A DNA stretch of 64,000 bases from assembly GCA_902805845.1 (NCBI GenBank), contig CADCUI010000001.1, positions 140,592 to 204,591 of the forward strand, given 5' to 3'. This document shows, in pieces, positions 4,479-62,024 of the stretch; positions within the stretch are counted from its first letter, which is position 1; every line of letters begins with the position of its first letter. Below the pieces are notes generated by a model. The model was not told the DNA's origin and did no database searches. It worked only from the letters and a program-made list of their open reading frames with translations. A program made the translations under genes and the position numbers. This DNA is from an uncultured Nocardioidaceae bacterium (GTDB lineage Bacteria; Actinomycetota; Actinomycetes; Propionibacteriales; Nocardioidaceae).

Positions 4479-4544
4479 CGCGATCCGCCCTCGATGTCCG
4501 GCCGATCCGCCCGCGATGTCCGGCCGACTCGCCCCTCGTGCAGG
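4479..4544 (+). repeat. Family A 22-nt repeat, 3 tandem units, forward orientation
   Basis: Units are cgcgatccgccctcgatgtccg, gccgatccgcccgcgatgtccg and gccgactcgcccctcgtgcagg. The array ends 27 nt before the VOC start codon. Confidence 0.85.
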
Positions 4545-17521: not shown

Positions 17522-18304
17522 TCAGGGACGTGGCTGCTGGCCCGGCTGGTGACTGGCTCGGGGGACGACGGTGCCCTTCACGGCCGGCCGGGGCCGCAGC
17601 TCGCGCCCGGCGTACTTGCCGATCTGCCAGGTGGCGTAGGCGTCCGCGCTCCCGCTCCACACCCCGCCGGCGAGCGGTATCCGCCGCAGGACGGTGCCGG
17701 CGGCCCGCTTGCCGACCACGCGACCGACGAGGGCCGAGGTCGTCTCGGCGGCGACCAGCTTGTCGAGCTCCGGGTCGTGTGCCGGTGCGGTGGCGACCAC
17801 CATCGGGGTGCCGGGGACCTTGCCCTCCTTGACCAGGCCCCTCACGGTCTCCTCGCCCAGCGTGCAGAGCAGGATCGCGTTGCGCACCCGACCGTCGGAC
17901 AGGTCGTAGCCGCGGAGGTGCGCGATGCCCGCCACCATCCGGCACTGCAGCAGCGCCAGCCCGGTGATGTTCACCGGGATCGTCGCGGCGGCGGTCACGA
18001 ATCCGCCGACGTTGCTGACGAAGCCCTGGGCCGCAGCGAAGCTGGCGTGGTTCTCGATGAGCTCGTTGATCGCCGCGTCGACGTCGCCGTGCTGCTCCTC
18101 GAGCTGCTTGGTGGCCGCCCGCGCCGCGCCGGGGAGCGGCCCGATGCCGTGGATCGCGCGATGCACGGTCTGGTGCACGAAGCCGCTGTTGAGGTCCGGC
18201 GCCATCCGGTGCAGGTCGGGAGCGACCCTCTTCACGATGGCCTGCCTGATCTTCACGCGTCTGCCCTTCCCTCGCCGGACCCCCAGTCTGCCCAGGAACC
18301 GCAA
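17522..18304 (-). CDS. EcsC-family-like protein (probable)
   Basis: 260 aa. The central AAQGFVSNVGGFVTAAATIPVNITGLALLQCRMVAGIAHLRGYD resembles the EcsC family core. The start codon is uncertain. Confidence 0.6.
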   Translation of the reverse strand: MRFLGRLGVRRGKGRRVKIRQAIVKRVAPDLHRMAPDLNSGFVHQTVHRAIHGIGPLPGAARAATKQLEEQHGDVDAAINELIENHASFAAAQGFVSNVGGFVTAAATIPVNITGLALLQCRMVAGIAHLRGYDLSDGRVRNAILLCTLGEETVRGLVKEGKVPGTPMVVATAPAHDPELDKLVAAETTSALVGRVVGKRAAGTVLRRIPLAGGVWSGSADAYATWQIGKYAGRELRPRPAVKGTVVPRASHQPGQQPRP

Positions 18305-18404
18305 CCCCGACTCCTCGGCCGGTCACTTCCGCCCTGTCCGTCGACCCTGTCCGTCGGCGCCGCACGTTGCCCCCGTCCGTTGGCCAGGACGGGACAATGA
18401 GCAC

Positions 18405-19085
18405 ATGCCGACCGAGCCGCCGCCGTCGCCGTGGCTCTTCCCGGACTTCACCCGGCCCGACCAGGACGCCGCCTGCACCGACGACCTGGTCGGGCGCGGC
18501 GCCGACCTGGCTCCGGGGACCCTCCTGTCGGCCTACCGGTCCGGTCTCTTCCCGATGCCGGACGGTGGCTCCGGCATGAGCTGGTGGTCACCTCGGGACC
18601 GGGGCGTGCTGCCCCTCGACGCGATGTGCGTGTCGCGCTCGCTCGCGAAGTCGTGCCGCCGGATGGAGCTGCGGGTCGACACGTCCTTCGAGGACGTGGT
18701 CGCCGCCTGCGCCGACCCGGCACGCGACGGGGGCTGGATCGACGCCGACATCGCCGCGGCGTACACCCGTCTCCACCGGCTGGGCTGGGCGCACTCGGTG
18801 GAGACGTGGCAGCACGGGGAGCTCGTGGGAGGGCTGTACGGGGTCGCCATCGGCGGGCTGTTCGCCGGCGAGTCGATGTTCCACCGGGTCACCGACGCCT
18901 CGAAGGTGGCGCTGGTGGGGCTGGTCGACCTGCTCTCCGACGAGTACGCCGGGGCCCGGCTGCTCGACGTTCAGTGGCGCACCCCGCACCTCGCCTCGCT
19001 GGGGGTGGTGGAGGTGCCGAGAGCCGGCTACGTCCGAGCCCTCCACGCCGCCCTCCAGGTGCCGTTGCCGACCCCCTGGCGCTGA
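18405..19085 (+). CDS. aat: Leucyl/phenylalanyl-tRNA--protein transferase
   Basis: LLSAYRSGLFPM, WWSPRDRGVLPLD and GGLYGVAIGGLFAGESMFH are typical of Aat. I chose ATG 18405 within the longer 17925 ORF. Confidence 0.85.
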   Translation: MPTEPPPSPWLFPDFTRPDQDAACTDDLVGRGADLAPGTLLSAYRSGLFPMPDGGSGMSWWSPRDRGVLPLDAMCVSRSLAKSCRRMELRVDTSFEDVVAACADPARDGGWIDADIAAAYTRLHRLGWAHSVETWQHGELVGGLYGVAIGGLFAGESMFHRVTDASKVALVGLVDLLSDEYAGARLLDVQWRTPHLASLGVVEVPRAGYVRALHAALQVPLPTPWR

Positions 19086-19156
19086 CCCGCCCCTCAGGTC
19101 TGGCCGAGCCGCCCAACATGTTGGGCGGCTCGGCCAGACATGAGGGGCGGCTCGAC
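19083..19156. repeat. Family A palindromic element (2 forward plus 2 reverse units); probable bidirectional terminator
   Basis: CCGCCCCTCAGGTCTGGCCGAGCCGCCCAAC-AT-GTTGGGCGGCTCGGCCAGACATGAGGGGCGG forms 31-nt arms with one mismatch. It fills the whole gap between the convergent aat and fpg-like stops. Confidence 0.85.
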
Positions 19157-28833: not shown

Positions 28834-28890
28834 CCGAGTCGGCGCGAATGCACGCCGGCTCGTGCATTCACGCCGACTGGGCCTGCTTTT
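28834..28890 (+). terminator. Hairpin formed by the first forward/reverse Family B pair, followed by a CTTTT run
   Basis: An ~18-bp stem (agtcggcgcgaatgcacg / cgtgcattcacgccgact, one mismatch), loop ccggct, then gcctgcttttc. On the other strand the same palindrome follows the arcA stop. Confidence 0.45.
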
Positions 28891-28942
28891 CGCGTGCATT
28901 CGCGCCGACTCGGCGTGCGGGGCGTGCGTTCGCGCCGACTCG
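28834..28942. repeat. Family B repeat cluster (1 forward plus 3 reverse units)
   Basis: ccgagtcggcgcgaatgcacg (forward), then cgtgcattcacgccgactgg, gcgtgcattcgcgccgactcg and cgtgcgttcgcgccgactcg (reverse). It lies between the convergent thioesterase and arcA stops. Confidence 0.85.
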
Positions 28943-30163
28943 TCAGACGGGGTCGCGGGAGATCGGGCACGACATGCACCGGGGCCCGCCGCGCCCGGAT
29001 CCGAGCTCGGACCCGGCGATCGCGATGACCTCGATGCCGGCGGCCTCGAGCCGGGCGTTGGTCTCGACGTTCCGCTCGTAGGCCACCGCGACCCGCGGCG
29101 CGATCGCCAGGGTGTTGTTGCCGTCGTCCCACTGCTCGCGCTCGGCGGTGACGGGGTCGAGGCCGGTGTCGATCTGGTGCAGCGTGTCGATGCGCATGGC
29201 CTTGGCGGCGGCCACGAGGAAGGGCTCCTCCGGCGCCATGTCGAGCACCATGCCGCCGTCGTCCCCGCGGTCGGCGACGGTCACGGCGTAGGCCGACAGG
29301 GAGTCGGCGAGGTTGGGATACATCACGATCTTGTCGACGTCGACCATCGTGCAGACGGTGTCCAGGTGCATGGTGGCCCGCTGCTGGGCGATGGGCACCG
29401 CCAGCACGGTCTCGGCCAGGTCCGCGGCGAACATCTGCCGCGCCAGCCGCTCCGCACCGGCCGGTGTGGTGCGCTCGCCGACACCGACGGCGACGACACC
29501 CGGCGCCAGGAGGAGGACGTCGCCGCCCTCGACGTACTCCTGGTGCCAGCCGTGGATCCGGGGTACGCCGGCGAAGCGCGGATGCAGGGAGTAGATGAGC
29601 TCGGTCAGCTGGCTCTCCCGGTCCCGCGCCTCCATCTTCAACGACGTGATGGCGACGTGGTCGCGGACCCACACGCTCGAGTCACGCGTGAACAGCAGGT
29701 TGGGCAGCGGGTCGACGAGGAAGTCGTCGGAGGGCAGCAGCGTGGTGACCAGGCCGTGGCCGCCGCGGACCTCGTCGTTGCGGACGCCCTCGCAGAGCAC
29801 CCGGGTGAGCTCTGCCGGGCCGAGCTCGGTGAGCGCCGTGGTGAGGTAGTCGCGCAGGGTGTCGCCCAGCCCGAGGTTCTGCATCACCGCGGTGATCGCG
29901 CGCGACCGGGCCTCCTCCGACTCCAGCGTCTCGGCCAGCAGCTCCACCAGGTAGAGCACCTCGACCCCACGCGCCCGCAGCGCCTCGGCGAACGCGTCGT
30001 GCTCCTCCTGTGCCCGGCTCACCCACGGGATGCCGTCGTAGAGCAGCTTGTCGTTGTTGCGGGGCGTGAGCCGTTTCAGCTCCGGCCCGGGCCGGTGAAG
30101 CATCACCGTGCGCAGCCGTCCGACCTCGCTGTCGACCCCTGGGGGCGCTCCCGCCGCGTCCAT
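28943..30163 (-). CDS. arcA: Arginine deiminase
   Basis: [17 protein letters not shown] at the N-terminus, a catalytic Cys near the C-terminus ([10 protein letters not shown]), and 406 aa. Confidence 0.92.
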
Positions 30164-32252: not shown

Positions 32253-33539
32253 TCAGGCGGTCTGGCGCGGTCGAGGGGCTGTGCGTCCGCCCTGGCCAGG
32301 CAGCCCCTGGCCAGGCAGCCCCTGGCCAGGCAGCCCCTGGCCAGGCAGCCCCTGGCCAGGCAGCCCCTGGCCTGCGCCGAGGGCGATGCCCCGTTCGCAC
32401 AGCCACGTCGAGATCCGCTCGTACGTCGGTTCGGGCAGGGCGACCACCGGCTCGATGCAGTCGGCGAACCGGCCGCACGCCTCGGACCACACCGCCAGAT
32501 TTCGCGGGCCGTAGTCCTCGCCCGCTGCGAAGTGGTCGGCAGCCGCCGACGAGATCCGCACCGTCACGCACTCGGGGCGGTCGAGCCGCCGCTGATGACC
32601 GAGGAACGCCTTGCCGCTCTTGATGCCGAGCACGATCTTGAGCCGGATCACCAAGTCGAGCAGCCAGAACATCGGGGTCATCGAGTGGTGCCGGATCGCT
32701 GAGGAGCCGCTCGCGACGTACCGCCGCAGCAGGGACTCGTCGAAGGCCAGCCCCAGCCGGTTGGCCTCGCCCACCATCCACAGCAGCGCGGTGTCGGAGA
32801 GCCCCGCCTCGGCGTAGCCGCCGCCGACGTCGGAGTGCACGCCTTCGAACCACACCTGGCGGACCCGCTCGTCCTCGTTGTCGCCGCCCTTCACGGCCTC
32901 CCAGAGGCAGGGCTCGAACTTCATCCGCTGCTCGTCGGCGGCCAGCGCCTGCCGGGCACAGAGCACCGCGTCGCTGAGCTGCACGTCGTGGAACTGGTGA
33001 GCACGGCGGACGGCGCCGGGCACGCCGAGCGCGCCGACGGTGTCGAACACGCCGAGGAACTGGATAGGTGTCGCGTCGTGGCAGTAGTCGTGGCGGAACT
33101 CTGCGGCGCTGGAGCCGAACATGCCACCGGCGGGATCGCGCTGCCTGTAGCGCGCCACCGCCTCGGGCAGCCGCTCGTCTACGAGGGCCCGCCTGGTCAG
33201 CAGTCCGACCTTTCCGATCATCCCCACCATCGACCGGGCGGTGTAGGCGCCGCGGCTGAAGCCGAACACGAAGATCTCGTCGCCCGGCTCGTAGTTGAGG
33301 GCCAGGAAGCGGTAGCCGGCCAGCACGTTGGTGAAGAGGCCCAGCCCGAACGCGCCGCCGAGGAACCGGTCCACGCGGTAGCTGCCGCCCACCCCGCTGA
33401 GGTAGAGCACCAGCTGCTGCACGCCGTCCGTGGCGGCGAGGTCGGTCTGCACGGTCCGAGCGATCTTCTCGATGTTGGTGACACACCGGCTGTCGGGGCG
33501 GTTCCACGTCCCGTCGCAGCAGATCACCAGCCGCTTCAT
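32253..33539 (-). CDS. DUF2235 (Tle1-like alpha/beta hydrolase) protein with C-terminal (GQGLP)5 repeat
   Basis: MKRLVICCDGTWN and FGFSRGAYTARS (GxSxG). The start at 33539 is preceded by GGGAGGAG. The 33605 start in the ORF track is an extension. Confidence 0.8.
   Translation of the reverse strand: MKRLVICCDGTWNRPDSRCVTNIEKIARTVQTDLAATDGVQQLVLYLSGVGGSYRVDRFLGGAFGLGLFTNVLAGYRFLALNYEPGDEIFVFGFSRGAYTARSMVGMIGKVGLLTRRALVDERLPEAVARYRQRDPAGGMFGSSAAEFRHDYCHDATPIQFLGVFDTVGALGVPGAVRRAHQFHDVQLSDAVLCARQALAADEQRMKFEPCLWEAVKGGDNEDERVRQVWFEGVHSDVGGGYAEAGLSDTALLWMVGEANRLGLAFDESLLRRYVASGSSAIRHHSMTPMFWLLDLVIRLKIVLGIKSGKAFLGHQRRLDRPECVTVRISSAAADHFAAGEDYGPRNLAVWSEACGRFADCIEPVVALPEPTYERISTWLCERGIALGAGQGLPGQGLPGQGLPGQGLPGQGLPGQGGRTAPRPRQTA
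32290..32370. repeat. 15-nt tandem repeat ccaggcagcccctgg, x5.4, in frame in the DUF2235 gene
   Basis: Five perfect units from 32296 to 32370 plus a partial leading unit. It encodes GQGLP x5 near the C-terminus. The unit ends (ccagg/cctgg) are self-complementary. Confidence 0.95.
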
Positions 33540-33649
33540 AGCTGGATGCTCCTCCCTTGGCCTGCCACCTGTCACGGTGCCTGCAACGACACGCAGCATG
33601 AGCATTTCGACTCAGGCGGCGGGACCATCGGCGGTGGGACGATCACGCC

Positions 33650-36895: not shown

Positions 36896-36981
36896 CGAGT
36901 CGGCGCTTGTGCACGCCGGAACCCCGTCGAGTCGGCGCTTGTGCACGCCGGAACCCCGTCGAGTCGGCGCTTGTGCACGCC
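36896..36981 (+). repeat. Family B repeat, 2.7 tandem units (32-nt period)
   Basis: cgagtcggcgcttgtgcacgccggaaccccgt occurs twice, then cgagtcggcgcttgtgcacgcc. It lies between the pirin stop and the start of the small membrane gene. Confidence 0.9.
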
Positions 36982-36994
36982 GACAGCGCCGAGG

Positions 36995-41299: not shown

Positions 41300-41387
41300 G
41301 CCGACCCGCCCCTCATGTCTGGCCGACCCGCCCCTCATGTCTGGCCGACCCGCCCGTCATGTCCGGTCGACCCGCCTTTCGTGCAGA
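41300..41387 (+). repeat. Family A 22-nt repeat, 4 tandem units, forward
   Basis: gccgacccgcccctcatgtctg x2, then gccgacccgcccgtcatgtccg and gtcgacccgcctttcgtgcaga. The array ends 10 nt before the CoA-transferase ATG. Confidence 0.9.
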
Positions 41388-41397
41388 ATCCCCACGC

Positions 41398-42555
41398 ATG
41401 GCCTACGCGCTGGACCAGGGGACGGGACCACTCAGGGGCATCAGGGTCGTCGAGATCGCCGGCATCGGTCCTGGCCCACACGCGGCGACGATCCTGGCCG
41501 ACCTGGGGGCCGACGTCGTCCGGATCGAGAAGCCGGGGGGTGCGGCGAGTGCCGGCCCACGCAGGACCGACCTGCTCACCCGGGGCCGACCGAGCGTCGT
41601 CCTCGACCTCAAGCACCCGGCCGCCCTCGCGGCCGTGCTCGAACTGGTGGCCGAGGCGGACGTCCTCATCGAAGGCATGCGCCCCGGTGTCGCCGAGCGT
41701 CTCGGCTTCGGGCCCGAGGACTGCTTCGCGCGAAACGGCAGGCTGGTCTACGGCCGGATGACGGGGTGGGGCCAGGACGGCCCTCTCGCGCAGGCCGCCG
41801 GCCATGACCTGAACTACATCGCCGTCAACGGGTTGCTCCACGGGCTCGGTCAGGACCCCAGCCGCCCACACTTCCCGAGCAACCTCCTTGGCGACTTCGG
41901 AGGTGGTTCGACGTACCTCGTGATCGGCGTGCTCGCCGCCGTCCTCGAGGCGCGCACAAGCGGGACGGGGCAGGTGGTGGACGCCGCGATCGTCGACGGC
42001 ACTGCTCACCTGAACCTGATGTGGGCCTCCCTGCTCGCCGGTGGCCTCGGCCAGGAACGGCGGGCGTCCAACATGCTCGACGGAGGCATCCCGCACTACG
42101 ACCTCTACGAGACCGCCGACGGCGAGCACATGGCCGTCGGGGCGCTGGAGCCGCGCTTCTACGCCGACCTGCTGGCACGCCTCGGCATCGCAGGGGTGGC
42201 GCCCGACCGCCACGACGCCGACCGGCTGGGCGAGCTCCGCCAGCTCCTCACCGACACGTTCCTGACCAGGACGCAGGCGGAGTGGACTGCGATCTTCGCC
42301 GGCAGCGACGCCTGCTGCACCCCGGTCCTGCCGCTGACCGAGGCACGCGAGCATCCCCACCTCGAGGCGCGCGGGGTGTACGTCGACCGCGGTGGTGTCG
42401 TGCAGCCGGCCCCTGCTCCCCGGTTCTCCCGGACCGGGGCAACCCTGTCCACCGGGCCGTCCACGCCCGGGGCGGACACCCGCGCGGTGCTCGAGGCGTG
42501 GGGCGTCGCCGACGTCGACGTACTGCTCAACTCAGGTGCCGCCGTCCAAGCCTGA
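41398..42555 (+). CDS. CaiB/BaiF family III CoA-transferase (alpha-methylacyl-CoA racemase-like)
   Basis: GIRVVEIAGIGPGPHAATILADLGADVVRIE and GWGQDGP...AGHDLNY are typical of family III CoA-transferases and racemases. Confidence 0.88.
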   Translation: MAYALDQGTGPLRGIRVVEIAGIGPGPHAATILADLGADVVRIEKPGGAASAGPRRTDLLTRGRPSVVLDLKHPAALAAVLELVAEADVLIEGMRPGVAERLGFGPEDCFARNGRLVYGRMTGWGQDGPLAQAAGHDLNYIAVNGLLHGLGQDPSRPHFPSNLLGDFGGGSTYLVIGVLAAVLEARTSGTGQVVDAAIVDGTAHLNLMWASLLAGGLGQERRASNMLDGGIPHYDLYETADGEHMAVGALEPRFYADLLARLGIAGVAPDRHDADRLGELRQLLTDTFLTRTQAEWTAIFAGSDACCTPVLPLTEAREHPHLEARGVYVDRGGVVQPAPAPRFSRTGATLSTGPSTPGADTRAVLEAWGVADVDVLLNSGAAVQA

Positions 42556-42556
42556 C

Positions 42557-42643
42557 CAGCATCCCGGGCGGGTCGGGCAGACATGAGGGGCGGGTCGAGC
42601 AGACATGAGGGGCGGGTCGGGCAGACATGAAGGGCGGGTCGGC
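42557..42643 (-). repeat. Family A 22-nt repeat, 4 tandem units, reverse
   Basis: cagcatcccgggcgggtcggg, cagacatgaggggcgggtcgag, cagacatgaggggcgggtcggg and cagacatgaagggcgggtcggc. The array starts 2 nt after the CoA-transferase stop. Confidence 0.9.
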
Positions 42644-49677: not shown

Positions 49678-49787
49678 GCCGACCCGCCCTCGATGTCTGG
49701 TCGACCCGCCCACGATGTCTGGCCGAGCCGCCCACGATGTCTGGCCGAGCCGCCCACGATGTCTGGCCGAGCCGCCCACGATGTCGG
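49678..49787 (+). repeat. Family A 22-nt repeat, 5 tandem units, forward (CGATG subtype)
   Basis: gccgacccgccctcgatgtctg, gtcgacccgcccacgatgtctg, gccgagccgcccacgatgtctg x2 and gccgagccgcccacgatgtcgg. Confidence 0.92.
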
Positions 49788-49864
49788 TTGACGGCTTGCG
49801 CCGCGGCGGCGTTGGCTGAGGGAAGGGCGCGGCGCCAGGTCGCGCCGACATCAGGAGGTAAACC

Positions 49865-50248: not shown

Positions 50249-50314
50249 CCGGTACGCCGGGCGGGTCGGCCAGACATCGTGGGCGGGTCGGCCGGACATC
50301 GCGGGCGGGTCGGC
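50249..50314 (-). repeat. Family A 22-nt repeat, 3 tandem units, reverse (CGATG subtype)
   Basis: ccggtacgccgggcgggtcggc, cagacatcgtgggcgggtcggc and cggacatcgcgggcgggtcggc. It lies between the VOC stop and the convergent kinase stop. Confidence 0.88.
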
Positions 50315-56708: not shown

Positions 56709-58616
56709 ATGGCCGACCTCCCCGACGCCCAGGCCGCCCTGGAGCGGCTGCGGGGACACGAGGCCTGGGCGGTGATCCGCACCCGCGACGCGGACTCGGT
56801 CACCCTGGTCGGCGGTGCCCGGTCGGAGGCCGGGTCGCTGCTCGACGTACCCCTCGAGCAGGGGTCGCCGCCCGTGGGCCGCAGGTACGACCGGCTCCTC
56901 GCCGTACCGTTCCGGCAGGTGGCCGAGCGGGGGTTCGAGGCGCACGACGACGGCACGCCGCTGGTGGTGGTCGACGTCGACTTCGAGGCCGAGGTGCCCT
57001 TCGCCGACCTCGTCGCCGCGCTGCCGCAGCAGCAGGTCGCGCTCGAGCGTCCCGGCGGCTTCGAGACCTCCGACGAGGAGTACGCCGCCGTCGTACGCCG
57101 CATCATCGACGACGAGATCGGGAACGGCGAGGGCGCCAACCTCGTGGTGGGTCGCAGCTATCGCGCCCAGCTGCGTGACTGGGGACCGGAGGCCGCGCTC
57201 GGCGTGCTGCGGCGGCTGCTCGAGCGCGAGCGCGGCGCCTACTGGACCTACTGCTTCTTCACCGGTGACCGCTACCTGGTCGGCGCGAGCCCCGAGCGGC
57301 ACGTCTCGGTGCACGGCGGTGACGTGCGGATGAACCCGATCAGTGGCACGTTCCGGCTGCGCGGGCTGCCCGTCGCCGAGCGCAAGCAGCGGCTGCTGCA
57401 GTTCCTGGCCGACGAGAAGGAGATCTACGAGCTCTTCATGGTCGTCGACGAGGAGCTCAAGATGATGTGCGACGTCTGCAACGAGGGCGGCCAGGTGCTG
57501 GGTCCGTTCCTCAAGCCGATGAGCCACCTGGTGCACACCGAGTACCTCCTCGCCGGCCGCACCACCCGCGACGTCCGCGAGGTGCTCCGGGACACGATGT
57601 ACGCCGCGACGGTCACCGGTGCTCCGGTCGAGAACGCCTGCCGGCTCATCCGCAGGTACGAGTCCGAGGGGCGTGGCTACTACGGCGCGGCGCTCGCGCT
57701 CCTCGGCAGGGACGCCAGCGGGGCGCCGACGGCAGACAGCCCGATCGTGATCCGCACCGCCGACGTGTCGACCTCCGGGGCGCTGCGGGTCACCGCGGGG
57801 GCGACGCTCGTGCGTGACTCCGACCCCGCTTCCGAGGTCGCCGAGACGTGGTCGAAGGCCGGAGGCATCCTCACCGCGTTCGGGCTCCTCGAGGCTCCGG
57901 AGACCCCGGACGGCGGCATCGAGGCGCTCACCCGCGACGAGGACGTGCTCATCGCGCTCGCCTCACGCAACCAGCGGCTGAGCAAGTTCTGGCTCACCGA
58001 CCAGGGCGGCGCCGCCCCGGAACCGCAGCTCAAGGGTCGCAGCGTGGCCGTGCTCGAGGGCGAGGACGACTTCGTCAACATGCTCCGTCACGTCTTCACC
58101 GTGCTCGGCATGAACGTGGCGGTGCTGGCCCACGACGAGTACGCAGCAGGTGCCTTCGACGCCTTCGATCTCGTCGTCGTGGGTCCTGGTCCTGGCGACC
58201 CCCGCGACGGTGAGCAGCCCAAGATCGCCGCGTTCCGACAAGCCACGGACGACCTGCTGGCCGCGGGCAAGCCCTTCCTCAGCGTGTGCCTGGGCCACCA
58301 GGTGCTGTGCGACAGGCTGGGGATTCCCCTTGCCTACAAGGACATCGTCTTCCAGGGCACGCAGTCCCGGGTGAGCCTGGGAGGAGTGCGCGGCGACGCC
58401 CGTGACGAGGTCGTCGGCTTCTACAACACCTTCGTCGGGCGCCCGGACGGGTCGCTGGCGCCGGGGGTCAGGGTCTCAGCCGACCCTGTCAGCGGCGACA
58501 TCCACATGGTCGCCGGACCACACTTCCGCGGGGTCCAGTTCCATGCCGAGTCGATCCTGACCGAGAACGGCTTCGCGCTGCTGCGCGACCTCGTGCTGGA
58601 TCTCCTGGCGCCCTGA
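56709..58616 (+). CDS. Anthranilate synthase family protein, fused chorismate-binding and glutamine amidotransferase domains (PhzE-like architecture)
   Basis: SPERHVS, MNPISGT and the GRGYYGAA...IRTA...AGATLVRDSDP chorismate-enzyme motifs. The C-terminal GATase has SVCLGHQ and VQFHAES. Confidence 0.85.
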   Translation: MADLPDAQAALERLRGHEAWAVIRTRDADSVTLVGGARSEAGSLLDVPLEQGSPPVGRRYDRLLAVPFRQVAERGFEAHDDGTPLVVVDVDFEAEVPFADLVAALPQQQVALERPGGFETSDEEYAAVVRRIIDDEIGNGEGANLVVGRSYRAQLRDWGPEAALGVLRRLLERERGAYWTYCFFTGDRYLVGASPERHVSVHGGDVRMNPISGTFRLRGLPVAERKQRLLQFLADEKEIYELFMVVDEELKMMCDVCNEGGQVLGPFLKPMSHLVHTEYLLAGRTTRDVREVLRDTMYAATVTGAPVENACRLIRRYESEGRGYYGAALALLGRDASGAPTADSPIVIRTADVSTSGALRVTAGATLVRDSDPASEVAETWSKAGGILTAFGLLEAPETPDGGIEALTRDEDVLIALASRNQRLSKFWLTDQGGAAPEPQLKGRSVAVLEGEDDFVNMLRHVFTVLGMNVAVLAHDEYAAGAFDAFDLVVVGPGPGDPRDGEQPKIAAFRQATDDLLAAGKPFLSVCLGHQVLCDRLGIPLAYKDIVFQGTQSRVSLGGVRGDARDEVVGFYNTFVGRPDGSLAPGVRVSADPVSGDIHMVAGPHFRGVQFHAESILTENGFALLRDLVLDLLAP

Positions 58617-58618
58617 CC

Positions 58619-59197
58619 ATGGGCGACCGCCCGAGCGTCGTGGTCGTCGACCACCAGGACTCCTACACCTTCAACCTGGTGCACCTGGTCGCCGCGGTGA
58701 CCGGCGAGCTCCCGGTGGTCGTCGACCACCACGAGGTGACGTCGACCGACCTCCTCGGGTTCAGCCACGTCGTCCTGTCGCCCGGACCCGGCAACCCCGA
58801 CGAGCCCGGCGACTTCGGGGTCGGCCGGGACGTGCTGCGCCACGCCGCCGTGCCGGTGCTCGGGGTGTGCCTGGGCATGCAGGGCCTCGTGGCCGGCTAC
58901 GGCGGCCGGGTGGCCGCTGTCAACCCGGCGCACGGTGACGTCGCCTCGGTGAGGCACGCAGGGACCGGGCTCTTCGAGGGCATCCCCTCGCCGTTCCAGG
59001 CGGTCCGCTACCACTCGCTGGCCGCTGTCAGCGTGCCGGCGGTCCTGGAGACCACCGCGTGGAGCGAGGACGGGACGGTGATGGCGGTCGCCCACCGGAC
59101 GCTGCCGCTGGTGGGCGTGCAGTTCCACCCGGAGTCGGTGCTGACCACCCATGGTGCGGTGATCGTCGAGAACTTCCTGTCCGGCCGGCTGCGGTGA
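58619..59197 (+). CDS. pabA: Glutamine amidotransferase component II (PabA/TrpG type)
   Basis: VVDHQDSYTFNL, the GVCLGMQ catalytic Cys, and VQFHPESVLT. Confidence 0.88.
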   Translation: MGDRPSVVVVDHQDSYTFNLVHLVAAVTGELPVVVDHHEVTSTDLLGFSHVVLSPGPGNPDEPGDFGVGRDVLRHAAVPVLGVCLGMQGLVAGYGGRVAAVNPAHGDVASVRHAGTGLFEGIPSPFQAVRYHSLAAVSVPAVLETTAWSEDGTVMAVAHRTLPLVGVQFHPESVLTTHGAVIVENFLSGRLR

Positions 59198-60549
59198 CCG
59201 GGCCGCCGGAGGCCTTCCAGGCGGCCGCGGGCTCCTCGGACAGGCTGGTGTGGCTGGACGGTCACGTGGCCGAGCACCCGTGGTCCGGCCGGGGCTCGCT
59301 GCTCGGTGTCCTCGGGGCCGACGACGTGTCGCTCACCTTCGACGCGGGTCGGCGACAGGTGCTCCGCCACCGTGGAGAGAACTCCCAGCCGGTCGGGGAC
59401 GACATCTTCGACGTCCTGGAGGCCGAGGTGGCTCGGGACGCCGGCGACCCGTCGGTGGTGTGGGTGGGCTACCTCGGTTACGCCTGCCGGACCGACCTGC
59501 CCGGCAGACCGGCCGACCCGGGTTCCGGCGTACCCGACGCGGTGTGGCTGCGGCTGGTCGACCCCCTCACCCTGCCGACCCGCCCTTCATGTCTGGCCGA
59601 GCCGCCCACGATGCTGGGCGATCGCAGCATCGTGGGCGGCTCGAACGAACATGAAGGGCGGGTCGACGAGGGGTACGCCGCGGCGTACGCCGAGGTGCAA
59701 CGGCAGCTGCGGCTCGGGAACTCCTACGAGGTCAACCTCACCTACCGGGAGAGGCTCGCCTCCGACGTCGACCCGGTGACGGCGTACCTTCGCTTGCGCG
59801 AGATCAACCCGGCGCCCTACTCCGGCTACCTGCGGCACCGCGGTGTCCACCTGCTCAGCTCGAGCCCCGAGCGGTTCGCGGCCGTGGACGGGGAGCGGGT
59901 GCTCGAGGCCCGGCCGATCAAGGGCACGACGCGGCGTGGCGCGACCCCGGCGGAGGACGCCGAGGAGGCGCGACGGCTGGCCGCCGACCCGCGGTTCCGC
60001 GCCGAGAACCTCATGGTCGTCGACCTGCTGCGCAATGACCTGTCGATGGTGTGCGACCCCGGCACCGTCACGGTGCCGGCGCTGATGGCGGTGGAGTCCT
60101 ACCCCTCGGTGCACCAGCTCGTCTCGACGATCCGCGGCCGGCTGCACGACGGCGTCTCGACGGTGCGGGCGGTGCGGGCGCTCTTCCCGGCCGGGTCGAT
60201 GACCGGGGCGCCGAAACGCCGGACGATGGAGATCATCGACGCCGTCGAGGCCACCCCGAGGGGCGCGTACGCCGGGGCCTTCGGCTGGCTCTCCGGTGAC
60301 GGCCGGGCCGACCTCAGCGTCGTCATCCGGACCCTCGTCGCGACGCGGAGCGGCGTGTCGACCAGCATCCTGGGCGGCTCGACCGGACATGAGGGGCGGG
60401 TCGGCGGGTGGACCTACGAGCTCGGCACCGGCGGGGGGATCACCGTGCGCTCCACCCTGCACGAGGAGTACGACGAGACGCGCTGGAAGGCCGCCCGGCT
60501 CCGGGCGGCCCTCCACGTGGATCCTGGGTCGGACCTCTCGACGCCCTGA
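59194..60549 (+). CDS. pabB: Aminodeoxychorismate synthase component I-like chorismate-binding enzyme carrying two in-frame Family A repeat segments
   Basis: GTGA overlap with the pabA stop. Motifs: SYEVNLT, SSSPERF, RPIKGT, AENLMVVDLLRND, FPAGSMTGAPK, PRGAYAGAFGW and GGGIT. Repeat-derived peptides lie at about residues 127-158 and 390-404. Confidence 0.85.
   Translation: MTGPPEAFQAAAGSSDRLVWLDGHVAEHPWSGRGSLLGVLGADDVSLTFDAGRRQVLRHRGENSQPVGDDIFDVLEAEVARDAGDPSVVWVGYLGYACRTDLPGRPADPGSGVPDAVWLRLVDPLTLPTRPSCLAEPPTMLGDRSIVGGSNEHEGRVDEGYAAAYAEVQRQLRLGNSYEVNLTYRERLASDVDPVTAYLRLREINPAPYSGYLRHRGVHLLSSSPERFAAVDGERVLEARPIKGTTRRGATPAEDAEEARRLAADPRFRAENLMVVDLLRNDLSMVCDPGTVTVPALMAVESYPSVHQLVSTIRGRLHDGVSTVRAVRALFPAGSMTGAPKRRTMEIIDAVEATPRGAYAGAFGWLSGDGRADLSVVIRTLVATRSGVSTSILGGSTGHEGRVGGWTYELGTGGGITVRSTLHEEYDETRWKAARLRAALHVDPGSDLSTP
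59574..59667. repeat. Family A palindromic element (2 forward plus 2 reverse units around GCGATCG) inside the pabB CDS
   Basis: gccgacccgcccttcatgtctg and gccgagccgcccacgatgctgg, then gcgatcg, then cagcatcgtgggcggctcgaac and gaacatgaagggcgggtcgac. The ~40-nt arms have about 4 mismatches. Confidence 0.9.
60363..60405 (-). repeat. Family A half-element (2 reverse units) inside the pabB CDS
   Basis: cagcatcctgggcggctcgac and cggacatgaggggcgggtcggc. This is the same inner-unit variant (CAGCATCC) as at 42557. Confidence 0.85.
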
Positions 60550-60550
60550 C

Positions 60551-60653
60551 GGCGCAGGGCGGCCCAGCGAGGGCGGCCCGGCGCAGGGCGGCCCAGCGAG
60601 GGCGGGCCAGCGAGGCGGGCCAGCGAGGCAGTCCAGCGAGGCAGCCCAGCGAT
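60551..60653. repeat. Short tandem repeats: a 29-nt duplication followed by about 4 copies of a 13-nt unit (CCAGCGAGGCRGB)
   Basis: CCAGCGA recurs at 60564, 60593, 60607, 60620, 60633 and 60646. It fills the convergent gap between pabB and the protease gene. Confidence 0.85.
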
Positions 60654-62024
60654 CTACTGCTCCTCGTCACTGTCGAGCGTGGCTGTCAACGTGACGCTCT
60701 CGCCGGAGCGGCTCACGGTGAGCTCGACCTCGTCCCCCGGCCGGTAGCCGCGGATGGTGGCCACCAGGGACTCCACCCCGGTGATGGCGTGGTCGTCGAC
60801 ACGGGTGACCACGTCGCTGGCCCGCAACCCGGCCGCCTCGGCGGCGGAGCCCTCGTTGACCGACGCGATCCGGGCGCCGGTCACGAGACCGCCGTCGACG
60901 CCGTCCTGGCCATCTCCTCCGAGGTCGTCGCCCTCGAGACCGCCCTCGGAACCGCCCTGAGCGCCCGCGTTGGCCGCGGTGACGCCGAGCTGGGCGTGGG
61001 TCGGGGTCTCCTCGTTGCGCAGCTGCTCGACGATCGGCAGCACGTTGGTCAGCGGGATCGCGAAGCCCAGGCCGATGGAGCCGCCTTCGCTCCCGAGCCC
61101 GGCGCTGGCGGTCCGGATCGAGGAGTTGATCCCGACGACCTGGCCGGCAAGGTTGACCAGCGGGCCTCCGGAGTTGCCGGGGTTGATCGCCGCGTCGGTC
61201 TGGACCGCGGGGTAGACGGTGGCCTCCTCGTCGCTCCCGCCCACCGTGACCGGCCGGTTGAGCGAGCTGACGATGCCGCTGGTCACGGTGGCGTCGAGCC
61301 CGAACGGCGAACCGATCGCGACCACACCCTCCCCGACGTCGAGCGCGTCGGAGTCGCCGAGCTCGGCCGCCGTGAGGCCGGAGACGTCCTGGGCCCTGAT
61401 GACCGCGAGATCGGTGACCGGATCGGTGCCGACGACCGTGGCAGGAGCGGTGCTGCCGTCGTCGAAGCTCACCGTCAGCTGGCCGCCGTCGGCGGCCACG
61501 TCCACGACGTGGTTGTTGGTGAGGATGTCGCCGTCCTCACTGAGGATGACTCCCGAGCCGGACCCCGCGCCGCCGGAGCTGACGACGTCGATCTTGACCA
61601 CCGAGGGCAGCACCCGAGCCGCGACCGCCTCCGGCGAGCCCTCAGGGGCGGTCGCGTCGGTCGCGTCGGTAGAGCCGGACGACGATCCGCGGTTCAACGA
61701 GGTCGACGACCCCTCCTCGGACCGGGCAACCGTGGACGTGCCGGTCGCCGACGTCGTGTCGTCGTCGACCGCGTCGTAGGCCGCTGCGCCTGCGAAGCCG
61801 CCGGCGCCGCCCGCCACCAGCGCCGCCGCGAGCAGGGCTGCGGCGCCGGCGCGCGAGCGGCGCCGTGGGGCAGGGGACGGGGGGCTCCCCGGAGGGGTGC
61901 TGCCCCCCGGGGCGTCCCATGAGGGAGGGATCACGGTGGTGTGCTCCGTGGTCGTCTGCGCAGCAGTAGGCGCGGCGGGGTCTGGCCGGTCGGCAGGGCC
62001 GTACCCGGAGGGATTCGAGGTCAT
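60654..62024 (-). CDS. pepD: HtrA/PepD-like S1C serine protease with PDZ domain
   Basis: ILTNNHVV (His), TDAAINPGNSGGPLV (Ser) and a C-terminal PDZ-like region. ATGA overlap with the upstream kinase stop. Confidence 0.85.
   Translation of the reverse strand: MTSNPSGYGPADRPDPAAPTAAQTTTEHTTVIPPSWDAPGGSTPPGSPPSPAPRRRSRAGAAALLAAALVAGGAGGFAGAAAYDAVDDDTTSATGTSTVARSEEGSSTSLNRGSSSGSTDATDATAPEGSPEAVAARVLPSVVKIDVVSSGGAGSGSGVILSEDGDILTNNHVVDVAADGGQLTVSFDDGSTAPATVVGTDPVTDLAVIRAQDVSGLTAAELGDSDALDVGEGVVAIGSPFGLDATVTSGIVSSLNRPVTVGGSDEEATVYPAVQTDAAINPGNSGGPLVNLAGQVVGINSSIRTASAGLGSEGGSIGLGFAIPLTNVLPIVEQLRNEETPTHAQLGVTAANAGAQGGSEGGLEGDDLGGDGQDGVDGGLVTGARIASVNEGSAAEAAGLRASDVVTRVDDHAITGVESLVATIRGYRPGDEVELTVSRSGESVTLTATLDSDEEQ

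Follow-up and report, generated by a model that had tools for sequence, protein, structure and literature searches.

In-frame palindromic repeats are textbook for Rickettsia, with scattered further cases among the repetitive extragenic palindromes (REPs) of Proteobacteria. In Actinobacteria, the mycobacterial interspersed repetitive units (MIRUs) are direct, non-palindromic repeats of 40-100 bp that lie in the intergenic gaps of operons and are sometimes translated through; to our knowledge they have not been seen as in-frame loops of enzymes. The Rickettsia palindromic elements (RPEs) are ~100-150 bp long and are present in dozens of unrelated genes of these AT-rich obligate intracellular alphaproteobacteria (Ogata et al. 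2000; PMC10969869). REP, BIME and REPIN sequences are short GC-rich palindromes with GTAG and CGTC tags, and proteobacterial REPs lie downstream of open reading frames (ORFs) or between convergent ORFs, form tandem clusters, supply stop codons, are occasionally intragenic, and can flank genes as arrays (PMC3733652). Bacterial transposable elements of the miniature inverted-repeat kind (MITEs) for which in-frame fusions are reported (ERIC, BOX, Correia and the Coxiella QMITE) are small and non-autonomous, have inverted repeats at their ends, and can extend or fuse with ORFs (PMC10969869). Here we describe a palindromic element that is read in frame within a pabB-like gene on a 64,000-nucleotide stretch of DNA from an uncultured Nocardioidaceae bacterium (contig CADCUI010000001.1, positions 140,592 to 204,591); we refer to the whole stretch as the window and count positions from its first letter. 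The source is a short-read soil metagenome contig from ENA, and its relatives are Nocardioides and Marmoricola. The first-pass annotation of this DNA, made from the letters and their ORFs, knew of no actinobacterial equivalent, and the literature we searched likewise describes no such repeats in Nocardioidaceae and no in-frame palindromic elements in Actinomycetota, although its coverage is incomplete and this is an absence of evidence. Nocardioidaceae are also missing from the lists in the REP literature that we examined.

The element in the pabB-like gene (Table 1) is an inverted repeat with two 41-nt arms (59576-59616 and 59625-59665) that are 90% complementary and separated by 8 nt. The first-pass annotation had placed a 94-nt palindrome of its Family A at 59574-59667; the palindrome is confirmed, with a corrected length of 90 nt (59576-59665). 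It is ~73% GC and is built of 22-bp units with the consensus CGACCCGCCCCTCATGTCTGGC, the inner two being of a GATGCTG-type variant, and as RNA it folds at -90.5 kcal/mol (z = -12.3), a value that none of 200 shuffles equalled. The units are not peculiar to this gene. A 17-mer from the outer unit has 22 matches in the window (0.35 expected) and an 18-mer from the inner unit has nine (0.34 expected). The pabB units conform to the Family A pattern of the other copies, CGA(C/G)CCGCCC followed by 12 nt, and differ from the intergenic units of the window at a mean of 3.2 of 22 bases, with a minimum of one. The order of unit types in pabB, with outer TCATGTC-type and inner GATGCTG-type units, is that of the arrays at 42554-42641 and 49680-49789, and the forward-forward-reverse-reverse arrangement that gives a single long stem is shared with the intergenic palindrome at 19083-19154. 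The pabB segment is thus a copy of the dispersed palindromic family of the window. A resemblance of its centre, GCGATCGC, to the cyanobacterial HIP1 octamer was considered and set aside as coincidence, since other copies have other centres.

The palindrome is translated in the frame of the long ORF as PTRPSCLAEPPTMLGDRSIVGGSNEHEGRVD (residues 128-158, 31 residues), and lies, as the first-pass annotation had it, between the variable N-terminal part of the protein and an invariant NSYEVNLTYR block. Two of the three frames of the 90-nt element are open. A single forward unit contains no stop codon and a single reverse unit closes one frame, so that the earlier statement on stop codons, from which coding insertions were taken to be survivable, holds for single units; three tandem reverse units shut all three frames because 22 is not a multiple of three. 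A second, half copy consisting of the right arm only lies near the 3' end of the same gene (Table 1), with pattern matches at 60363-60380 and 60387-60403; its units differ at two to three positions from the intergenic units at 42554-42597 and 41346, and it forms no hairpin of its own (fold z 0.06). The peptide GGS(T/N)xHEGRV is present at both insert sites. Codons ending in A or T make up 7 of the 31 in the first insert and 5% in the remainder of the gene (p = 9e-4), a usage that sets this insert apart as foreign to the PabB-like gene. We also note that the inner unit in pabB holds an in-frame ATG (59611). Translational bypass of the type described for T4 gene 60 and the yeast mitochondrial 'byps' elements is an unnecessary explanation here, given an open frame and a hairpin that lacks matching take-off and landing codons on its flanks.

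The host gene encodes a 451-residue product, identical to that of the gene call in the source assembly, and its preferred start, a GTG, overlaps the stop codon of an upstream amidotransferase gene (GTGA). The best NCBIfam match is TIGR00553 (pabB) at 300.4 bits, and because this falls below the equivalog cut-off of 328.4 we call the protein PabB-like. Matches to PF00425 place it in the chorismate-binding fold, and its best solved relatives are the aminodeoxychorismate (ADC) synthases 8hx6, 4grh and 1k0e in the PDB (E values 5.5e-66 to 2.7e-54). The motif RPIKGTTRRG is present and its columns are invariant across 35 orthologs; the PIKGT lysine corresponds to the nucleophile K274 of E. coli PabB, where TrpE has alanine, and the motif separates PabB from TrpE. 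The upstream amidotransferase is likely, from its family assignment and position, to be the partner subunit, and the two genes are translationally coupled and are neighbours in all related loci. Gene order is also kept in all relatives examined, with a helicase gene, a gene for a 635-residue fusion protein, the amidotransferase and PabB-like genes, and then, on the other strand, an HtrA gene and a two-component system. In comparisons with four relatives the dN/dS ratios (nonsynonymous to synonymous substitution rates) of the core are 0.26-0.38, and over 100 alignment columns do not vary; the conserved core is intact and under purifying selection. The gene shows no mark of a pseudogene. Within the scope of one contig, which leaves room for a second pabB elsewhere in the genome, this bears out the first-pass view that the gene appears functional with its motifs intact, and the PabB-like protein would be made and active.

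The two repeat-coded pieces fall in predicted loops. An AlphaFold model built on the 35 orthologs (mean pLDDT, the predicted local distance difference test score, 83; pTM, the predicted TM-score, 0.85) has coil with pLDDT below 50 at residues 133-153 and 390-402, and the only other low-confidence coil is at residues 24-32 and in the C-terminal tail. In this model a strand (125-128) precedes the first insert and a helix (159-173) follows it, and the second insert forms the loop of a beta hairpin near the C-terminus (strands 379-385 and 406-416). Foldseek aligns the model with ADC synthases at TMq 0.75-0.76, and sequence alignments to the solved ADC synthases begin downstream of the first insert and are interrupted at the second; the fold matches, too, break at both inserts. 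The model thus predicts that the repeat-coded segments are compatible with the fold and sit in loops.

Comparison with relatives shows what the first insert replaces. In orthologs from 80 species-level genomes, the linker from the DAVW anchor to the NSYEVN anchor is typically 56-59 residues long, as against 67 in the window protein. In repeat-free orthologs it is shorter, non-homologous, rich in proline and alanine, and unstructured as RNA (fold z ~0), and none of these orthologs carries a homologous segment of the same length. The 31 repeat-coded residues therefore stand in for ~21 variable ones with a net gain of ~10, so that the anticipated insertion of ~30 residues is right as to the span occupied and too large as to the length gained. 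The window and two related loci (L084 and L085) have the C-terminal copy, L004 has half of it, and it is lacking in L001 and L003, which encode the DNA-read orthologs most identical to the window protein (75% and 73%). We infer from these alignments that the segment is an insertion and not ancestral protein sequence. Three other lineages have much longer PabB linkers of 83-96 residues (L012 10367-10558, L020 10370-10540 and L013 2147-2299); these are imperfect palindromes of 130-190 nt folding at -75 to -117 kcal/mol, and they share the peptide …GTPARS..ARPP.PGHSP….

Members of the window element's superfamily occupy the corresponding site of the linker, with the frame unchanged, in L001, L003, L005 (N. 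caldifontis), L084 and L085, the orthologs being 65-75% identical. The elements of L001, L003, L005 and L085 fold at -52 to -99 kcal/mol (z -6 to -11), and N. caldifontis is a cultured isolate (YIM 730233) with the linker peptide …SSRPSWRETAPR…. The window and L001 share their left boundary, their right boundary (…GGGCGGGTCGACGAG…TAC GCC) and their frame, and those of L003, L005 and L085 are nearly the same. The units nevertheless group by genome and not by locus: orthologous pabB copies differ from one another at 8.7 of 22 bases, as against 3.2 of 22 for the window pabB copy and its intergenic counterparts, and in L085 the variant TCGAGCCGTCACTCGTGCCGG occupies both loops of pabB and recurs in two intergenic regions close by. 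This pattern implies that the element either re-inserted recently at the site or was homogenised by gene conversion. A neighbour-joining tree was tried for counting gains and losses and abandoned, its topology and midpoint root being too unreliable.

Palindromes of unrelated families occupy the linker in other lineages. Those of L008, L046 and L074 also occur elsewhere in their 21-kb loci, the L008 palindrome in four copies within 21 kb, and L071, L014 and L062 have linker hairpins too. Of the 92 strong inverted repeats in the 84 loci examined (1.64 Mb), 10 lie inside the linker, which makes up 0.62% of the sequence; ~0.6 would be expected, and the enrichment is ~17-fold (Poisson p roughly 1e-9). 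The presence of unrelated dispersed families together with this excess indicates that independent insertions into the linker do occur, and with a strong bias. As a separate observation, a perfect palindrome with no loop (score 23) is read in frame as …FRQAQPTSVELVETQ… in another long ORF of two different metagenome-assembled genomes (L063 2082-2127 and L054 2326-2353), ~8 kb from pabB, and is a second candidate intragenic palindrome in Nocardioidaceae.

Set beside the described systems, the element behaves much like the RPEs: a dispersed palindrome lies in frame in a housekeeping gene, contributes extra peptide in a fold-compatible segment, and leaves the gene intact. It differs in being 90 nt long, ~73% GC and composed of tandem 22-bp units, in belonging to a mostly intergenic family, and in having convincing coding copies only in pabB within the sequence sampled, which comprises 111 arrays (taken from the window, from ortholog loci and from soil metagenome contigs) and 1.64 Mb of related loci. 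Homology to RPE families 1-10 is implausible at 73% GC, and the likeness is one of description and not of sequence comparison; by this analogy the pabB element appears to work like RPEs without being a member of the RPE family. The comparison with Rickettsia made in the first-pass annotation thus holds for tolerance, and is refined in that linker residues are replaced, the insertion is not private to the window genome, and coding copies are confined to one gene. The window family resembles REPs in its downstream and convergent placement, tandem clustering, supply of stop codons, intragenic copies and gene-flanking arrays, but whereas the REP unit is an imperfect palindrome of 20-40 bp, the 22-bp unit is not self-complementary and only opposed arrays pair, and its units start CGAC or CGAG and not GTAG or CGTC. 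The small size of the pabB element (90 nt) and its 41-nt terminal inverted arms are MITE-like, but neither a target-site duplication nor a parent insertion sequence was recognised, arms differ in how many units they hold, and arrays with a single arm are common. With MIRUs it shares an actinobacterial host and short tandem repeats, some of them read through by translation, although MIRUs are direct and not palindromic.

We consider it probable that a selfish REP/MITE-like palindrome is tolerated in two permissive loops of a working PabB-like enzyme, much as RPEs are in their hosts. The family would be a dispersed non-coding repeat of Nocardioidaceae that is normally intergenic and often placed right after stop codons, and of which one full and one half copy became part of the PabB-like coding sequence, presumably by insertion. 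These copies would persist by virtue of having landed in two structurally unconstrained loops, with a length that keeps the frame and with a stop-free frame in use. The enzyme would then include two additional floppy peptides, their sequence set by the repeat and not by protein function, and re-insertion or gene conversion would be the likely route by which the in-gene copy is kept in step with the other copies of its genome.

Several points weigh against this explanation. No recognisable target-site duplication is present at 59576-59665, 19083-19154, 41302/42641 or 49680/50312, and the ends of the element are not defined by an empty site, none having been found in a near-identical strain; a C-rich 'leader' before the first unit, considered as a target-site duplication, looks like a degenerate partial unit. 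There is no parent transposase or insertion sequence in the window, where the genes adjacent to the arrays are ordinary metabolic ones, and mobility is deduced only from the distribution of the copies. Production and activity of the protein are likewise read from the sequence of a metagenome contig, and low pLDDT is a prediction and not demonstrated disorder. One old insertion could also account for elements that share site and frame in several lineages. All other coding sequence in the 1.64 Mb holds nine in-frame inverted repeats, mostly weak; under pure tolerance other permissive loops should collect palindromes too, and the bias to one linker is not fully explained.

That bias is the substance of an extension that we regard as possible but doubtful, in which the linker is a landing pad to which several unrelated palindrome families are targeted or into which they are swapped by gene conversion. 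In that event the in-gene copies would evolve in concert with the repeats of their genome, the linker peptide would be repeat-derived across much of Nocardioidaceae, and selfish hairpins in a free-living high-GC bacterium would be engaged in a recurrent 'protein loop writing' with a site bias, beyond passive tolerance.

It seems improbable that the hairpin has been selected to act in cis on pabB expression, for example as a ribosome or polymerase pause or a processing site, with its palindromy maintained by selection in each lineage. The near-perfect stems in five lineages (-52 to -99 kcal/mol) despite different sequences and with compensatory-looking changes, and the ~17-fold enrichment of the linker in strong inverted repeats, would suit such a role. 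Most orthologs, however, are unstructured at this position (z ~0), so the enzyme can do without the structure; the sequences represent copies from dispersed, mainly intergenic families; and the second copy in the gene has no hairpin. A terminator scan of 59000-60700 also returned none, the pabB stem being followed by ACGAGGGGTACGCC without a T-run, and no Rfam family matches anywhere in the window.

A single ancient insertion in the ancestor of the clade, inherited vertically, with similarity to other copies arising through gene conversion, palindromy through arm-to-arm correction, and no new insertions, differs from tolerance of a selfish palindrome in history only and not in nature. It accounts for the boundaries and frame that the window shares with L001 and, almost exactly, with L003, L005 and L085. 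The carriers of the element are not monophyletic in the rough neighbour-joining tree, however, with N. caldifontis among element-free sequences, and the unrelated families in the same linker of other lineages show that independent insertions happen, so that we think this history unlikely.

The derivation from a short-read metagenome contig raises the question of an assembly artefact or a decaying pseudogene. Against this, the two flanks together make up a single conserved gene whose synteny is also kept, the reading frame stays open, purifying selection acts on the core, and analogous elements occur in independent assemblies, including Mb-scale contigs and the cultured isolate N. caldifontis; either possibility is very improbable. 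Local origin, by template-switch mutation in an unconstrained linker or as a selected peptide motif GGSxxHEGRV, would fit the recurrence of GGS(T/N)xHEGRV at both protein sites, but can be dismissed, as the same 22-bp units are found at >=7 non-coding loci of the window (that is, at least seven) and on soil contigs, mostly outside genes, the peptide varies between lineages exactly as the DNA unit does, and the codon usage of the insert is atypical for the gene.

If selfish palindromes are indeed tolerated in this enzyme, a free-living high-GC soil lineage would also accommodate a hairpin of ~-90 kcal/mol inside a conserved enzyme gene. The locus adds two testable points, namely that one protein loop is colonised independently by different families and that in-gene copies track the genome-specific variant, and it offers a defined system for repeat movement and homogenisation, for the encounter of ribosomes with very stable intragenic hairpins, and for selfish DNA that supplies loop sequence. 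For annotation, 'linkers' that vary in length among Nocardioidaceae proteins may turn out to be inserted repeats.

Table 1. Coordinates of the pabB-like gene, its inserts and partner gene, and of other arrays of the repeat family in the window.
Feature	Position	Strand	Description
Palindromic element	59576..59665	+	90 nt; inverted repeat, unit census, fold, translation
Forward 22-bp units of the palindrome	59576-59597, 59598-59619		2-nt centre; reverse units 59622-59643, 59644-59665
Second half copy (two reverse units, right arm only)	60360..60403	+	residues 390-404, read as TSILGGSTGHEGRVG
PabB-like coding sequence (aminodeoxychorismate synthase component I family)	59194..60549	+	451 aa
Glutamine amidotransferase (PabA/TrpG type)	58619..59197	+	TIGR00566 trpG_papA, 150 bits, above cut-off
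Intergenic full palindrome (forward, forward, reverse, reverse)	19083..19154	+	between convergent ORFs; fold -77.7 kcal/mol, z -9.8
Four forward units	41302..41389	+	10 nt past ABC-ATPase stop, just upstream of CoA-transferase gene; 22-bp period, 3.5 copies, 94% matches
Four reverse units	42554..42641	+	from CoA-transferase stop onward; with 41302-41389 flanks that gene in inverted orientation
Five forward units	49680..49789	+	upstream of glyoxalase-family gene; 22-bp period, 4.9 copies, 95% matches
Two to three reverse units	50260..50312	+	downstream of glyoxalase-family gene, 13 nt from stop of convergent gene
2.5 forward units, variant (CGATCCGCCC...)	4481..4534	+	divergent intergenic region

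Besides the PabB-like gene, the family has at least seven other loci in the window. Its unit consists of a 10-bp core, CGA(G/C)CCGCCC (CGAGCCGCCC), followed by 12 lineage-specific bases, with a core spacing of 22 bp, and Tandem Repeats Finder independently reports 22-bp arrays at 4481, 41300, 42566, 49678 and 50258. An exact pattern for the window's own unit dimer has no match in the JGI metagenomes. A degenerate two-core pattern gave 120 matches, some of them due to chance or to other repeats, and the soil contigs that carry the family are 70-76% GC and bear both forward-forward-reverse-reverse palindromes, whose arms differ in their number of units, and tandem arrays that are 2-6 units long. 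These arrays usually begin within ~20 nt of a stop codon, in many cases a TGA, and among the 111 arrays pabB is the only convincing in-frame coding case. At the intergenic palindrome in Table 1, the TGA at 19083-19085 that ends ORF 17910-19085 is formed by the first three bases of the first unit (TGACCCGCCCC compared with CGACCCGCCCC), and the repeat therefore supplies the stop codon. A further point of contact with coding sequence is at 41359-41400. A forward unit here (GTCATGTCC) contains an ATG that shares the frame of the CoA-transferase gene, for which another ATG, at 41398, is the likely start; the ORF reaches 13 codons into the array, which is a possible alternative start or an annotation trap.

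Ordinary single genes are bracketed by forward and reverse arrays, which form long inverted repeats 0.5-1.2 kb apart, at four places: a CoA-transferase III gene and a glyoxalase-family gene in the window (41302-41389/42554-42641 and 49680-49789/50260-50312), and PNPOx-like and REase-like genes elsewhere (L127 5046-5121/5754-5807 and L149 1-50/1103-1134). This could reflect chance placement after the stops of neighbouring genes or a cassette-like arrangement. The idea that the bracketed genes are mobile is neither supported nor excluded by the four genes, which are unrelated and ordinary and include no transposase, and in L127 at least, each of the two arrays simply follows the stop of a convergent neighbour.

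Other features of the region and the window are of some interest. The 635-residue fusion protein (56709-58616), which joins chorismate-binding and amidotransferase parts, is always encoded just upstream of the amidotransferase and PabB-like genes in Nocardioidaceae; it has PISGT where PabB has PIKGT and TrpE has PIAGT, and scores far under every NCBIfam equivalog cut-off. A distinct tandem repeat directly follows the PabB-like stop codon (60550-60652), with a period of 13-14 or 29 bp (AGGGCGGCCCAGCG, ~7 copies), and occupies the whole 100-bp gap before the convergent htrA-like gene. Elsewhere, a 32-bp tandem unit is repeated 2.7 times with 100% identity at 36896-36982, and a 30-32-bp array of related length lies at 28856-28952. 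Finally, a perfect 15-bp repeat of 5.5 copies (32290-32372) is located within a stop-free interval of high GC3, the GC content at third codon positions, on the minus strand (32253-33611), and therefore probably encodes a five-residue protein repeat.

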